The translations under genes were made by a program, and so were the position numbers. Below are positions 2,254 through 29,007 of a DNA stretch of 64,000 nucleotides, one piece after another. The notes under the pieces are model-generated. The model had not been told where the DNA came from. It made no database searches and saw only the letters and a program-made list of their open reading frames with translations. Each line of letters begins with the position of its first letter. Position 1 is the stretch's first letter. The DNA comes from Candidatus Omnitrophota bacterium. Its GTDB lineage: Bacteria > Omnitrophota > Gorgyraeia > Zapsychrales > Zapsychraceae. Where the stretch lies: positions 4,201 to 68,200 of the forward strand of contig JAGVNC010000084.1 in assembly GCA_020053475.1 (NCBI GenBank), written 5' to 3'.

Positions 2254-3652
<1,399 letters not shown>

Positions 3653-3771
3653 TGCCAAATTATCACAGTTTGTTATCAAAGTCAAGCCCGCTATAGGCCC
3701 TGCAGATGGCCCGGGAATAGAGAATTCCTGCCTTTTGCGTTCCTGGGGTTTGTGGTATACTTAAGCAAATG

Positions 3772-3893
3772 AAATCCAAAATCCTAAACTCTAAATTCCA
3801 AATAAACTCAAAATTCAAAATACAAAACATCATTTGTCTTTTGGATTTTAGATTTATTTAGGATTTAATGTTTTGAGTTTAGGGTTTTATTAA
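3772..3893. repeat. Family-A intergenic hairpin repeat, copy 2 (divergent eno / ftsH-like spacer)
   Basis: aaatccaaaatcctaaactctaaattccaaataaactcaaaattcaaaatacaaaacatcatttg / tcttttggattttagatttatttaggatttaatgttttgagtttagggtttt. Confidence 0.6.
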
Positions 3894-3919
3894 ATATTTC
3901 TTTAGAAAGGCCACGGGAC

Positions 3920-5608: not shown

Positions 5609-6525
5609 ACGCCCGGACGTTCGTCTTAGCTCTCCTCGGCCTTAGTATTTTCATCACCGGCTGCGGCCCGTCTCCCGTAAACGAAAAGAAAATCGCTTCG
5701 TCCGAGGCTTACACAAAATTCCTGCAAATCGCTAAAGAAGACTACAATCTTGAGCCCGTCACTCACTGGGTGAAAAATACACTGTGGATTTATTTACCGA
5801 TCACGGAAAGTTTGTTCGATTTAAAAGCCAAGGATGCCTCTCCAACCAACGACCAACCATCGGAGAAATATAATATTCAATTTATTGATGGAGCCTATCA
5901 GGATCGACGGTTTGTGATTACTTACGACATTGCCAAAGCACGGGTTTATCCCAAAGATTACGGCTACGGCACATCCTATTCCCAAGAGTATCAGCATAAG
6001 CAGCGCAATCTCATGACAGCCATCACACGCGCTTTTGAAAATGCTCAAGAAAAACCGGAATTCCTTGTCATCGTCATCGCTGACATCAACAAAGGCATTG
6101 AGCTCAAAATGACCGTGGCTTATCAGGATTTAGACCGCGCGTCAAAAGATCAGACATTTTATGAAGAGTACGCTTATCGCGCTGTCTTGACGCCTCCTCA
6201 AGGCAACACGGCCATCATTGATGACAAGACAGGAACGCATCTTGATTACAAACCGGTGGCGTGGCCGGATTTTCTCGCCAAACAAATCGTCTATCGGATC
6301 CAGTTCAAATACCAGCAAAGCTCGTTCCCTCCGACGGATACGCCCGAGCAAACAATCCTCTCGGCCGTGGCCCAAACGCTTAAGGCGTACAATTTCACGG
6401 ATTATGCTGGGGTTGTCTTAAGAAATTTGGCTTCCGATGAGACGAAGGTCGTCGATCAAGCGGCCATCGCTGCGTTGCCTACCGAAGAATCAAAGGGAAG
6501 GTTGATTGAGATTAAATTTCGTTAA
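5605..6525 (+). CDS. lipoprotein of unknown function, co-translated with the FtsH-like protease
   Basis: ATGA start/stop overlap with the upstream gene. Signal peptide with lipobox LSIFITGCG. No recognisable catalytic motif. Confidence 0.5.
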   Translation: MNARTFVLALLGLSIFITGCGPSPVNEKKIASSEAYTKFLQIAKEDYNLEPVTHWVKNTLWIYLPITESLFDLKAKDASPTNDQPSEKYNIQFIDGAYQDRRFVITYDIAKARVYPKDYGYGTSYSQEYQHKQRNLMTAITRAFENAQEKPEFLVIVIADINKGIELKMTVAYQDLDRASKDQTFYEEYAYRAVLTPPQGNTAIIDDKTGTHLDYKPVAWPDFLAKQIVYRIQFKYQQSSFPPTDTPEQTILSAVAQTLKAYNFTDYAGVVLRNLASDETKVVDQAAIAALPTEESKGRLIEIKFR

Positions 6526-6528
6526 AGC

Positions 6529-6659
6529 AAACTCAAAACTCTAAATCCTAAACAAATCCAAAACTCAAAATCCTAAACCCAAAATAAACTCAAAACATAA
6601 AATCCAAAAAATTTGGATTTTGTATTTTGGGTTTGTTTAGAGTTTAGGATTTAGGGTTT
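6529..6659. repeat. Family-A intergenic hairpin repeat, copy 3 (convergent lipoprotein / purN spacer)
   Basis: aaactcaaaactctaaatcctaaacaaatccaaaactcaaaatcctaaacccaaaataaactcaaaacataaaatccaaaaaa / tttggattttgtattttgggtttgtttagagtttaggatttagggtttc. Confidence 0.6.
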
Positions 6660-7259
6660 CTCAACAATTTCCACCCTTCTCCCCTTCATTGTCAATCTTC
6701 CCTCGACAAAGAGCTGGATCGCTTTCGGATAGATGCGGTGTTCGATTTTGTGAATTTTTTCGGTAAGAGTTTCGATCGTATCGCTTTCAGCGATCTTGAT
6801 CGCGTCCTGCAGGATAATGGGGCCGTGGTCCATTTTCTCGTCGACAAAATGGACCGTTGCACCGGTCACTTTAGCGCCGTAGGTAAACGCATCTTTGATG
6901 CCGTCAAGGCCTTTAAATGATGGCAACAACGACGGATGGATGTTTAGGATTTTACGCGCATAAGTTTTTACAAAAAATGCCGATACTAACCGCATATACC
7001 CGGCCAGGACGATAAAATCAATCTGTTCCTGCTTCAAATGGATGGTGAGTTGCCGGTCATAGCTCGTCGGGGTCGCGTAGTCCTGGGGATTCAAAAACAA
7101 TGTTTTGATGCCGGCGTCTTGGGCCCGCTTAAGGGCAGGGGCTTTACGGTTGTTGGACACGACTAACGCCAATTCTCCGGTAATCGTTCCGGCCTTGACC
7201 GCATCGATAATGGCCTGCAGATTAGATCCATGCCCGGAAGCAAAGACTGCGAATTTCAT
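6651..7259 (-). CDS. purN: phosphoribosylglycinamide formyltransferase
   Basis: MKFAVFASGHGSNLQAIIDA...NIHPSLLPSFKGLD...HFVDEKMDHGPII, the classic PurN blocks; 202 aa. Confidence 0.85.
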   Translation of the reverse strand: MKFAVFASGHGSNLQAIIDAVKAGTITGELALVVSNNRKAPALKRAQDAGIKTLFLNPQDYATPTSYDRQLTIHLKQEQIDFIVLAGYMRLVSAFFVKTYARKILNIHPSLLPSFKGLDGIKDAFTYGAKVTGATVHFVDEKMDHGPIILQDAIKIAESDTIETLTEKIHKIEHRIYPKAIQLFVEGRLTMKGRRVEIVEKP

Positions 7260-24697: not shown

Positions 24698-24735
24698 ATC
24701 CTAAATCCCCCGTGCCGTCCCGGCAGGGACGGTGC

Positions 24736-24842
24736 AAAACTCTAAACTCTAAATAAATACAAAACTCAAAATCTAAAATATTTTGATCATTTGAATTTTG
24801 GGTTTACTTTGGATTTAGGATTTTGAGTTTAGAGTTTTATTT
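24736..24842. repeat. Family-A intergenic hairpin repeat, copy 4 (prfB / secA spacer)
   Basis: aaaactctaaactctaaataaatacaaaactcaaaatctaaaatatttt / gatcatttgaattttgggtttactttggatttaggattttgagtttagagtttt. Confidence 0.6.
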
Positions 24843-24850
24843 TAACGTTT

Positions 24851-25952
24851 TTACTCTTTCTTATTTGCCTTCATCCTCAAATACGCCTCAATAAACATAT
24901 CGATGTCCCCATCCATGACTTTCTGCACATTGCCTGTTTCGACATCGGTACGATGGTCTTTGACCATGGTGTAAGGATGCATGACGTACGAACGGATCTG
25001 GCTGCCCCATTCGATTTTTTGCTTTTCTCCTCGTTCCTTAGAGACCAGGGCTTCTTGATCTTTGATTTTTTGTTCATAAAGCCGGGCGCGTAAAATGCGC
25101 ATGGCCACCTGGCGGTTCTGCAACTGCGAGCGCTCGTTCTGGCATTGGACGATGATTCCCGTCGGAATATGTTTAATGCGTACCGCCGATTCCGTCGTAT
25201 TAACGCTCTGTCCACCCGGGCCTGACGAACGAAAAATATCAATCCTTAAATCTTCCGACTTGATCTCAATGTCGATGTCATCCTCAATTTCGGGAATGAT
25301 ATCCACGGATGCAAACGACGTGTGGCGGCGTTTATTGGAATCAAAAGGAGAGATCCGCACCAGCCGGTGGACCCCTTTTTCACTTTTCAGCAGGCCGTAG
25401 GCCATCGGCCCGGTGATCGATAACATGACATTTTTGATGCCCGCTTCTTCTCCCGCGAGAATGTCCAGCGCTTTTAGTTCAAATCCTTTATTCTGCGTCC
25501 ACCGTGTATACAACCGCAAAAGCATGTTGGCCCAATCACATGACTCTGTCCCCCCGGCCCCGGAATTAATGCTAAGGATCGCATTATTTTTATCAAATGG
25601 CCCGCCTAAAATCGTTTGGATTTCGGTCGCACTCGCTTCTTTCTCCAATGCCTGGAGTTCCGATTGGATTTGCGCCGTCATTGCCGCGTCCCCCTCGGCT
25701 AATGTCAGAAATTCTTTTAGATCACTGGCGCGCTTGACGCTATTCTCAAATGGCTCGACGCAACCTTTCAAATACTTTAATTCCCGCATCAATTTGTTGG
25801 CTTGCGCAGAATTGTCCCAGAAGTTCGGCTGGTTCATCTCCTGTTGAATAACGGCAATGGCTTGTTGCTTCTTAGGAAGGTCAAAGAAACCCCCTTAACG
25901 ATTGGAGTTTCCTTTCTAGCACATCAATTCTTTGCTTAATGTCGTCAATCAT
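24851..25952 (-). CDS. prfB: peptide chain release factor 2 with programmed +1 ribosomal frameshift
   Basis: Frame 0 starts ATG 25952 (MIDDIKQRIDVLERKLQSLRGFL) and ends at CTT TGA C (25886-25880), preceded by the internal SD AGGGGG. The +1 frame continues DLPKKQQAIAVIQQEMNQPNFWDN... into the 328-aa ORF 24851-25837, which contains SPFDS and GGQ (SGPGGQSVN) motifs. Confidence 0.85.
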
Positions 25953-26063: not shown

Positions 26064-27143
26064 TTATTGGAAACTATTCTTAAGCCCCTTCAGGGCCAAA
26101 TCAAATTCATCTTTACTGTCCGCCATGGCCCTCGCGGCCCCAGGATCGACAAACCCGTCTTTGACTAGCCGCACGAGCGATTGCTTGAAGGATTGCATGC
26201 CGAACAGCTCCCCCTCATCGATAAACCCCTGGATCTCCCGGATCCGCCCCTCACGGATCAAGCGCGCGATCATCGGTGTCACGACCATCGTTTCATAGGC
26301 AGGAATACGGCCTCGGCCATCTTTGCGCGGCAGAAGCCTCAACGAAATGGTCCCTCGTAAAATCAGCGATAGTTGGGTGCGCACCTCATCATGCAAATGC
26401 GGGGGGAAAAAATTCACAATGCGCATGATCGTTTGCACGGCATTAATCGTATGAAATGTCGTCATGACAAATGTCCCTAGCTCTGTCGCTGTAATGGCGG
26501 CCTGCATGGTTTCCTGGTCGCGGATATTGCCGATATAAATGATGTCCGGGCTTTGTTGGGTGACATATTTAAGCGCCTGCGGATAGGAGTGAACGTCTAA
26601 CCCCAATTCCCGCTGGTTAATCAGGCTCTTTTTATCAATAAATAAGAATTCAACCGGATCTTCAATCGTAATAATGTGTTTGTTGCAGAGATTATTGATG
26701 TATTCGATCATACTGGCGATCGTCGTGGATTTTCCGTTTCCCGCCGGGCCACAACAGAGAAACAAGCCCTTGCTTTCCTCGCAAAACAGCTTACACACCT
26801 TGGCAGGCAAATAAAGATCTTCAAAATCCTTGATATGGCTATGGACGTAGCGCGCGACCACAACAGGGGTCCCCCGCTGCATAAACACATTGACGCGAAA
26901 GCGGCCAACCCCGGGCTCTTCATGAATAAAGTCAATATCAAAATTCTCCTTGAATTGTTTACGGCGTTGCTCGTTAGACAATAGCAAATTGGTGGCGGCC
27001 AGCATCTCGTCCCGGCCGATCTCGTTATCGCCAACGAGCTGTAATTGGCCGTCGATCCGGACCCGGGGATAAGAACGTATCCGCAAGTAGAGGTCCGAGG
27101 CCCCTTTGTCCACCATCACTTGAAAAAGTTCCCGCAAATTCAT
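26064..27143 (-). CDS. pilT: type IV pilus retraction ATPase PilT/PilU family
   Basis: Walker A GPAGNGKST, Asp box, His box and overall PilT length (359 aa). Confidence 0.8.
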   Translation of the reverse strand: MNLRELFQVMVDKGASDLYLRIRSYPRVRIDGQLQLVGDNEIGRDEMLAATNLLLSNEQRRKQFKENFDIDFIHEEPGVGRFRVNVFMQRGTPVVVARYVHSHIKDFEDLYLPAKVCKLFCEESKGLFLCCGPAGNGKSTTIASMIEYINNLCNKHIITIEDPVEFLFIDKKSLINQRELGLDVHSYPQALKYVTQQSPDIIYIGNIRDQETMQAAITATELGTFVMTTFHTINAVQTIMRIVNFFPPHLHDEVRTQLSLILRGTISLRLLPRKDGRGRIPAYETMVVTPMIARLIREGRIREIQGFIDEGELFGMQSFKQSLVRLVKDGFVDPGAARAMADSKDEFDLALKGLKNSFQ

Positions 27144-27225
27144 GGCGTTGATCCTTTCAGGGGTTCAAAAGAGAATTATTCTAACACGATTTTTTCATCT
27201 TCCCAAGAGTTTCTCTCTCGACCGT

Positions 27226-27277
27226 GTTTTAGGGTTTAAGGTTTAAGGTTTAAGGTTTAAGGTTTAAGATTTAGGGG
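27226..27277. repeat. tandem heptamer array (GGTTTAA) x5 flanked by TTTAGGG-like units
   Basis: ttttagggtttaaggtttaaggtttaaggtttaaggtttaagatttagggg, read directly. Confidence 0.85.
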
Positions 27278-27575
27278 CGAGGATGACCATATATTTTAAA
27301 ACATACAAATACAAAATCATTAGAAATAAATACGTGATCAAAACCAGGCTAAAAGCCCGATTTAGAAAAAAGACGGATCCAAAGATCGAACAGATAAACA
27401 ACACAACCGCAAACCCTAATGCAAAAGGTACAGACAACCGGCCGGATGCAATCGCGCGCATTTTCTTCAAAGGATGATTTTTATCTTGTTCCCTATCGGG
27501 GATATCATTGAGGATATAAATACTGGAAGCCCCCAGGCAGAAAATAATAAACGCCTGACCAAACCTTACAACCAT
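27264..27575 (-). pseudogene. 3-prime-truncated UbiA-family prenyltransferase fragment (103 codons; stop supplied by the GGTTTAA array)
   Basis: GGAGG SD 5 nt before ATG 27575. YILNDIPDREQDKNHPLKKMRAIASGRLS is the UbiA/DPPR-synthase Asp-rich motif, followed by only two more TM helices where family members have about six. The ORF track's longer frame (to 27680) overlaps uvrC. Confidence 0.5.
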
Positions 27576-27603: not shown

Positions 27604-29007
27604 CTATTTTGCTCTTCGTTTAAAAACATCTTTCCCTCGCAAAAGCCGATGATAGTTGACCGCAAACCGATGCGCCTCATTGCGAACCCTCTGAAGAAGC
27701 TGGAGGCCTAACGAATCTTCGTTAAGCCGCACCGGAATTCTGCGGTGAGGCAAGAAGATTTCTTCTTCTCTTTTGGCTAAGGCAATCATCGGGATATCGA
27801 TCCCTAATTTTTCTAAGGCCTGACAAGCGCTGGATAATTGCCCTTTCCCTCCGTCGATGACAATCAAATCAGGATAAGATGATCCTTCGTCGCGCAGTCG
27901 TCGGTAGCGTCGTGTCACAATCTCGGCAATCATTCCAAAATCGTCGATGCCCTCAACACTTTTGATGCGAAATCTTCGATAATGGTTCTTATCCGGCTTG
28001 CCGTTTAAAAACGACACCATCGACCCTGTGGCCTGTTGGCCCATGATGTTGGAGATGTCGAATGCTTCGATTCGTTCCGGTGGACGCGGGAGCCCCAAAA
28101 CCATTTTCAGCTGTTCCGCTTCTTTGGTATAATTGATGTCCTTTGTTCCCGAATAAAGAGCCCCGATCGCCCGCAATTGATCACGAATTTTAGCGGCTTT
28201 TTCATAGTGCTGTGCTTTGGTCATTGTTTCCATTTGTTGCCTAAGAGAACGATAAAGCTCATCTTTCTTCCCTTCCAAAATCAAACACACATTGTTGATG
28301 TTTCGACGATATTCTTCTTGAGACATTTTGCCTAAACAAGGCCCTTCACATAAACCGATATGAAAGTCCAAACATTCCTTCTCCGGCAAAGGATGACAAG
28401 TGCGGAAATTAAAAATTTTGCGGATGATCGTCAACGCCTCACGGACCAAACGCGGGGTCACATACGGGCCATAATAACGATTCCCTTCCTGTTTGACGCG
28501 GGGACGCTCAACACTAATGCGCGGGAACGGCTCGTTAGTGATCACAATGTAGGGATAACTTTTGTCATCCCGTAATTCCACATTGTATTTTGGTTTATAT
28601 TCCTTAACGAGGCTGGCCTCCAATAGGAGCGCTTCGGCTTCACTGGCGGTTTCCTGATAGTCAATATCATCGATCTCCCCGACAAGATGGTCGGTTTTGG
28701 TCAACGTTTTGGTCAGCCGAAAATAAGACTGGACACGCTTACGTAAAGAAATGGCCTTCCCTACGTAAATGACCCGGCCTTTAGCATTTTTCATTAAATA
28801 AACGCCGCTTGTCAGGGGAAGCATTCTAATTTTTTCTTTAAGGATCATCATAGAAGAAGTGAATCGTGAAGAGTGAATTGTCCCGTGGAAGGCAAAGCCT
28901 TCCCGGAATTTTAAATCCCCGAAATCGCGTTGCGATTTCAGGGGATATCTAGCAAGCCTCGAGATACTCTTCACTAGATACTCTTCACTCTTCGTATCCA
29001 TTCCCAA
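27604..29007 (-). CDS. uvrC: excinuclease ABC subunit C, short form lacking the C-terminal (HhH)2 domain
   Basis: GIY-YIG block (GVYLMKNAKGRVIYVGKA), UvrB-interacting region and RNase-H-like endonuclease domain (DGGKGQL...AKREEEIF). The protein ends after that. The 29007 start is TTG; ATG at 29001 or 28851 are alternatives. Confidence 0.7.
   Translation of the reverse strand: MGMDTKSEEYLVKSISRLARYPLKSQRDFGDLKFREGFAFHGTIHSSRFTSSMMILKEKIRMLPLTSGVYLMKNAKGRVIYVGKAISLRKRVQSYFRLTKTLTKTDHLVGEIDDIDYQETASEAEALLLEASLVKEYKPKYNVELRDDKSYPYIVITNEPFPRISVERPRVKQEGNRYYGPYVTPRLVREALTIIRKIFNFRTCHPLPEKECLDFHIGLCEGPCLGKMSQEEYRRNINNVCLILEGKKDELYRSLRQQMETMTKAQHYEKAAKIRDQLRAIGALYSGTKDINYTKEAEQLKMVLGLPRPPERIEAFDISNIMGQQATGSMVSFLNGKPDKNHYRRFRIKSVEGIDDFGMIAEIVTRRYRRLRDEGSSYPDLIVIDGGKGQLSSACQALEKLGIDIPMIALAKREEEIFLPHRRIPVRLNEDSLGLQLLQRVRNEAHRFAVNYHRLLRGKDVFKRRAK

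Follow-up and report, generated by a model that had tools for sequence, protein, structure and literature searches.

The minus-strand UbiA-family ORF at positions 27264..27575 of the window (the whole 64-kb stretch of DNA analysed here) is very probably a recent deletional pseudogene, left behind when an accessory cassette suffered two deletions between short repeats; this reading is drawn from sequence comparison with a closely related strain. It is an ordinary pseudogene produced by an already known kind of event, and the heptamer array in which it ends only happens to supply its stop codon.

We refer to the truncated ORF as the stump. Its ATG is at 27575-27573 on the minus strand, and 103 sense codons are followed by a TAA at 27266-27264, within the first of five perfect CTTAAAC units on the coding strand. 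A Shine-Dalgarno sequence, GGAGG, lies at 27585-27581 (minus strand), 5 nt before the ATG. An initial annotation, made from the letters alone, had described this Shine-Dalgarno sequence, a 103-codon ORF with an Asp-rich motif and a stop supplied by the array, all of which hold with these coordinates. The public gene call for the same ORF is a 4-hydroxybenzoate polyprenyltransferase of 121 aa. The stump matches the Pfam UbiA profile PF01040 at 62.6 bits (cutoff 34.2), over profile positions 22-114 of 250 only, and the NCBIfam DPPRT models NF008977 and NF008978 at 76.3 and 88.0 bits, below their equivalog cutoffs of 234 and 207 respectively. The Asp-rich motif NDIPDREQDKNHPLKKMRAIASGRLS is present, and the loop-II motif NDxxDxxxD is kept as NDIPDREQD, with a change of L to P relative to the sister strain described below. 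Among 73 full-length homologues L, V, A and I are commonest in that column, and Pro falls outside the eight commonest residues.

An exhaustive phmmer search of 1.84 billion representatives with the stump returns 7665 hits, the family aligning at 40-52% identity, with no hit above 52% identity and none reaching E = 1e-30. Stump residues 7-99 align to approximately residues 40-132 of homologues of about 290 aa, so the stump is truncated at both ends; neither the truncation on the N-terminal side nor the 123-bp in-frame deletion near the 5' end had been noticed in the initial annotation. The stump has neither the second conserved cytoplasmic loop nor the other helices of the C-terminal half, everything from TM5 onwards being gone, and a search of all frames and of the rest of the 64-kb window reveals no remnant of the UbiA C-terminus. 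The initial annotation had suggested searching the downstream frames for this missing part; beyond the array there is only the roughly 120 bp non-coding leader of pilT. Nor does the 64-kb window contain a second UbiA, HAD or PMT_2 copy.

An intact allele is present in a sister strain, the Candidatus Omnitrophota MAG GCA_030648475.1, which was reached through a UvrC at 97% aa identity (P0152) and whose flanks are 97-99.5% identical to the window in nucleotide sequence. The allele is known from two contigs of 3.8 kb each, both ending inside the cassette. The first, JAUSHM010000073.1 (L081), has the order murJ-uvrC-UbiA, then a further partial gene. The second, JAUSHM010000253.1 (L082), has the order PMT_2-HAD-pilT-prfB; its pilT product (P0272) is 100% identical to that of the window and is preceded by a divergent PMT_2 (GT-C) gene (PF13231, 34.9 bits against a cutoff of 26.1) and a HAD-IB phosphatase gene (TIGR01490, 122.5 bits). 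The UbiA gene of L081 is called at 316 aa, of which 299 codons follow the Shine-Dalgarno sequence and ATG shared with the window; NCBI names it decaprenyl-phosphate phosphoribosyltransferase, and it passes both equivalog cutoffs (NF008977, 261.8 against 234; NF008978, 212.5 against 207). The partial ORF after it (L081 3573-3784, 70 aa) has no Pfam or NCBIfam match, and its ELACGWG stretch is reminiscent of a SAM-methyltransferase motif I.

Alignment of the two strains by blastn places both losses. L081 1-1314 corresponds to window 30308-28995 (99.5% identity), L081 1395-2695 to window 28848-27548 (97.4%) and L081 2808-3088 to window 27558-27278 (97.9%), with a 123-bp gap between the last two and homology lost after L081 3088; on the other side, L082 1621-3752 corresponds to window 27262-25131 (98.4%). 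The stump thus joins codons 1-7 to codons 49-140 of the 299 in the intact orthologue and adds four out-of-frame codons (APKS); homology ceases at its codon 99, equivalent to codon 140 of the intact gene. Pseudogenisation, one of two possibilities offered in the initial annotation, is what the orthologous locus demonstrates, through the comparison that the annotation had itself proposed as a check. The comparison is with one sister strain, and its polarity rests on conservation within the family rather than on an outgroup carrying the cassette: the deleted segments hold columns conserved in the 73 full-length homologues, namely RPxQWxKN, D..IA.GFVLR..AG and KRR.E. Stump and intact allele differ at 6 of 281 nt, two of the differences being non-synonymous; because this is no higher than the divergence of uvrC, relaxed selection is not demonstrable.

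The smaller deletion removed 123 bp in frame, and with it 41 codons (EFREAWISMRPHQWTKNLLIFIGLIFSGKGTRLEDVATSTQ). In the intact allele two imperfect copies of a repeat, TCAGGAATTTA (L081 2685) and TCAGGCATTTA (L081 2808), lie 123 bp apart and match at 10 of 11 positions as TCAGG(A/C)ATTTA; one copy, TCAGGCGTTTA, is left in the window at 27548..27558 (minus strand). This deletion took TM1 together with the family-wide RPxQWxKN motif, and the stump lacks both.

The larger deletion has the same form. An exact 10-bp sequence, GTCATCCTCG, occurs twice in the intact allele: at L081 3079-3088, within the sister ubiA (codons ..M V I L D), and at L082 1610-1619, among the final codons of HAD (..S H P R P stop). 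The window has a single copy, at 27278..27287 (minus strand). On either side of the window's copy the sequence is that of ubiA upstream and of the HAD tail, GCCCCTAA, downstream, followed by the array. The 3' end of the HAD-phosphatase gene survives as a remnant at 27271..27287 (minus strand; ..S H P R P stop, GTCATCCTCGCCCCTAA), and its own TAA is kept at 27273-27271, now read out of frame, so that the ubiA-HAD fusion reads MVIL-APKS-stop. Starting at codon 140 of ubiA, the deletion stops 8 nt short of the HAD stop codon. It cost ubiA its 3' 476 bp and took at least three further genes: the one that follows ubiA, PMT_2, and almost the whole of HAD. Its size is at least 2305 bp, the sum of 696 bp seen on L081 and 1609 bp on L082, and probably exceeds 3 kb, as both sister contigs break off within genes.

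Because of these two junctions, we propose that an ancestor carried, between uvrC and pilT, an accessory cassette reaching from a full-length DPPRT-type gene to the GT-C (PMT_2) and HAD-IB genes, the middle of which we infer from the two incomplete contigs, and that it was destroyed by two deletions between short direct repeats. These may have arisen in either order, by replication slippage or by RecA-independent short-homology recombination. The 123-bp loss took TM1 and RPxQWxKN; the larger one joined what was left of ubiA to the tail of HAD in the wrong frame, which runs through four codons (APKS) to the first TAA of the array, already in place after HAD. With its native Shine-Dalgarno sequence and ATG retained, the stump may still be transcribed together with uvrC, but it cannot be an active phosphoribosyltransferase.

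The array itself, CCTAAAT (CTTAAAC)x5 CCTAAAA, occupies 27228..27275 on the minus strand. On the plus strand its five exact GGTTTAA units start at 27233, 27240, 27247, 27254 and 27261 and span 27233-27267; TRF reports 27228-27273 with a period of 7, 6.6 copies and 94% matches. In the sister strain an array of four units, CCTAAAC CTTAAAC CCTAAAC TCTAAAC, lies between the HAD stop and the pilT leader. After the HAD stop codon L082 reads AC CTTAAAC CCTAAAC TCTAAAC CCCCCAAT ACGGTCGAGAG, and the window reads AT (CTTAAAC)x5 CCTAAAAC ACGGTCGAGAG, that is, with four extra CTTAAAC units and without the TCTAAACCCCCCAAT segment. Because L082 has the array after HAD, we regard it as a pre-existing intergenic element, and the suggestion of the initial annotation that it had replaced the 3' part of the gene gives way to a deletion between the two exact copies of GTCATCCTCG. 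Between these two genomes, with flanks 98.4% identical, the number of CTTAAAC units is five in the window and one in L082 (in its degenerate four-unit array).

A candidate sigma-70-like promoter for pilT (TTGGGA, 17 nt, TAGAAT with TG), a match to consensus only, lies at 27178..27206 (minus strand), beginning 22 bp downstream of the array. The same promoter candidate is conserved in the sister strain. It is conceivable, if quite unlikely, that the heptamer tract is a hypermutable element whose length would tune transcription of pilT (type IV pilus retraction), for instance as a variable A/T-rich upstream element; were this so, loss of the cassette and expansion of the tract would together be marks of diversifying selection on the surface structures of Omnitrophota.

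The kinship between the array and other intergenic repeats, also noted initially, is confirmed: the pattern (YYTAAAY)2 occurs 11 times in the window where 0.1 would be expected, every time either in this array or in one of four AT-rich intergenic hairpin elements. These lie at 1812-1930, 3765-3895, 6522-6665 and 24730-24848, with RNA fold z values of -4.2, -6.1, -9.7 and -6.7 respectively, and are built of degenerate heptamers, (YYTAAAY)n, followed by a complementary arm. Since one of them sits between divergent gene starts, a role as terminators alone does not account for them. The window has a hairpin element between prfB and secA, genes that are separated by no more than about 30 bp in relatives such as L001; for this reason the four elements look lineage-specific. 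The heptamer array does not fold (z +0.83) and is ruled out as a terminator hairpin; a possible inverted partner arm at 27287-27316 (70% match) is likewise ruled out, being AT-rich coding sequence conserved in the intact gene. Elsewhere in the window, at 3544-3645, TRF output includes a palindromic pair of 8-mer arrays, (TAAAAGGG)n then (CCCTTTAA)n, adjoining the start of a minus-strand ORF at 2254-3525.

Three other explanations of the stump can be weighed against a deletional pseudogene. In the first, the ORF would encode a small membrane protein of 103 aa that functions and is under selection, either a neofunctionalised stump or a member of a stand-alone family. Its Shine-Dalgarno sequence and ATG are perfect, the ORF stayed open through the 123-bp deletion, which is in frame, and it could be co-transcribed with uvrC. 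However, the Shine-Dalgarno sequence and ATG are no evidence of function, because they are simply those of the intact gene, inherited unchanged and identical in L081; the last four residues and the stop are accidents of the fusion, and without TM1 the topology of the rest is doubtful. A conserved stand-alone family, which the initial annotation had named as a possible outcome, is not seen among the 1.84 billion representatives, where the best other matches are at most 52% identical and the full-length ones are about 290 aa. A word-indexed protein search with the 103-aa stump finds the self-match only, and among 15 billion proteins the stump's cluster has one member from one contig. We consider a functional product very improbable.

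About equally improbable is an assembly artefact, in which a collapsed or mis-joined contig would hide a gene and cassette that are intact in the real genome. The contig does derive from a metagenome, and the sister contigs break inside the cassette, as can happen where strain heterogeneity affects assembly graphs. Against this, the sequence shared at the junctions amounts to 10 bp and 5-11 bp, far below assembler k-mers, so that graph collapse is not expected; there are two independent scars in one gene, and the 77.9-kb contig is colinear with 16 relatives on both sides. The last explanation, the other possibility raised in the initial annotation, is that of a contingency locus in which the number of 7-bp units would shift the frame and switch a full-length UbiA on and off, and despite a perfect five-unit tract at the end of the ORF and a unit number that differs between two 98%-identical strains we give it next to no weight: the stop lies in the first unit, so that unit number cannot alter the frame upstream, TAA falls in all three frames of the tract (7 mod 3 = 1) with no sequence resembling a UbiA C-terminus after it in any frame, the 159 codons that the gene lacks occur nowhere in the 64-kb window, the tract of the sister strain is intergenic and downstream of a different gene, HAD, and the window's tract is placed upstream of the candidate pilT -35 rather than between -35 and -10.

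The deletional pseudogene sits in a slot between two intact genes, uvrC (27604..28848, minus strand), which ends where the uvrC of all relatives ends, and pilT (26064..27143, minus strand). The order murJ-uvrC-slot-pilT-prfB-secA is conserved in relatives with UvrC 60-71% identical, and the content of the slot varies (L001, L004, L006, L008, L009, L012, L014, L015, L028, L002 and L005). In a scan of genome contigs, no UbiA gene lies within 8 kb of uvrC in any of 16 relatives (UvrC at most 71% identical). In nine of the 16 the gene next after uvrC is ogt/MGMT (PF01035), with pilT seen beyond it in five of the nine, and two other relatives have a membrane protein of about 400 aa and a TPR protein in the slot; the sister strain has the DPPRT cassette (DPPRT, HAD and GT-C) there. 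The slot of relatives usually holds ogt, but polarity is not established from them, and no ogt homologue is found in the 64-kb window.

Both flanks of the slot have features of their own. UvrC proteins of the clade (L001-L015, L028, L081) are about 410-420 aa long, lack the C-terminal (HhH)2 domain and end about 17 residues past the RNase H-like endonuclease domain; as all clade members end at one point, a 3' truncation of the window's uvrC with loss of its HhH domain is ruled out. A 55-aa member of the UvrC cluster, P0393, proved to be unrelated. The 467-aa uvrC ORF starting at TTG 29007 is probably over-extended at its 5' end, because homologues start near residue 54. On the other side, prfB (ORF 24851-25837, minus strand) has a classical programmed +1 frameshift site, CTT TGA C, at about 25886; the frame-0 leader MIDDIKQRIDVLERKLQSLRGFL stops at this site, and the +1 frame runs into the 328-aa ORF.

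What the lost cassette did can be considered from its sister copy. Its GC content is 38-43%, against 44-50% for the flanks, and this, together with its absence from more distant relatives, suggests an accessory island. In a known three-component system for extracytoplasmic pentofuranose glycosylation, a PPPRS and its HAD phosphoribose phosphatase act together with a GT-C glycosyltransferase and a MATE flippase; the PPPRS is a UbiA-family protein of nine TM helices in which motifs of loops II and IV are essential (PMC11127046). Of this pathway the sister strain has the DPPRT, HAD-IB and PMT_2/GT-C genes; no flippase is seen, both of its contigs breaking off within the cassette. Nothing closer than 47% identity to the intact UbiA is found among metagenome contigs, and no complete cassette was recovered from them. 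A HAD-IB gene, its product 39-44% identical to that of the sister strain, lies directly upstream of a UbiA/DPPRT homologue in three unrelated metagenome contigs (L090 9372-10753, L093 1204-2669 and L094 1-1088), which supports a conserved functional pair of HAD and DPPRT, as in the fused PPPRS of PMC11127046. By analogy, lipid-linked pentose glycosylation is the probable function of the cassette, with a role, we infer, in surface-glycan pentofuranosylation.

In practice, the ORF should be flagged as a pseudogene and left out of prenyltransferase counts in metabolic reconstructions of this uncultivated Omnitrophota lineage. The locus is an example of strain-level presence and absence of a probable lipid-linked pentose glycosylation cassette in the variable slot between uvrC and pilT, and a clean natural example, in near-identical environmental strains, of two deletions at microhomologies, to which we would attribute them, together with a change in length of a heptamer tract.

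Among known systems, the closest to the gene itself are the DPPRS/PPPRS enzymes of the UbiA superfamily, M. tuberculosis Rv3806c and C. youngae ORF15, with which the stump shares the loop-II motif NDxxDxxxD. The intact sister gene passes the cutoffs of this family (NF008977/NF008978) and is accompanied by a HAD phosphatase and a GT-C as in PMC11127046. In contrast, the window copy lacks TM1, RPxQWxKN and everything from TM5 onwards, including the second of the conserved loops in the nine-TM fold known from Rv3806c and ORF15 (PMC11127046), and is a remnant rather than a member enzyme. The tract may be compared with the 7-bp repeats upstream of Haemophilus influenzae hmw1A and hmw2A, which are heptanucleotide contingency loci (PMC8262952, PMC2424069). 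As there, a 7-bp tract lies upstream of a surface-organelle-related gene (pilT) and its unit number differs between strains, one against five; however, the window tract has only five perfect units, lies 22 bp upstream of the candidate -35 and is situated neither inside a promoter spacer nor inside an ORF, and it is not a UbiA frame switch. With REP/BIME-like palindromic elements the comparison is partial. The array shares YYTAAAY units with the four long intergenic hairpin elements, although it consists of a single arm and, at z +0.83 against -4.2 to -9.7 for those elements, does not fold, and the window's elements are built from degenerate 7-mers rather than from a fixed REP consensus. Replication slippage or short-homology illegitimate recombination between short direct repeats is a textbook source of deletional pseudogenes. 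The stump is alike in having direct repeats (10 of 10 bp and 10 of 11 bp) at the endpoints with one copy left at each, and it is particular only in that two such events hit one gene.
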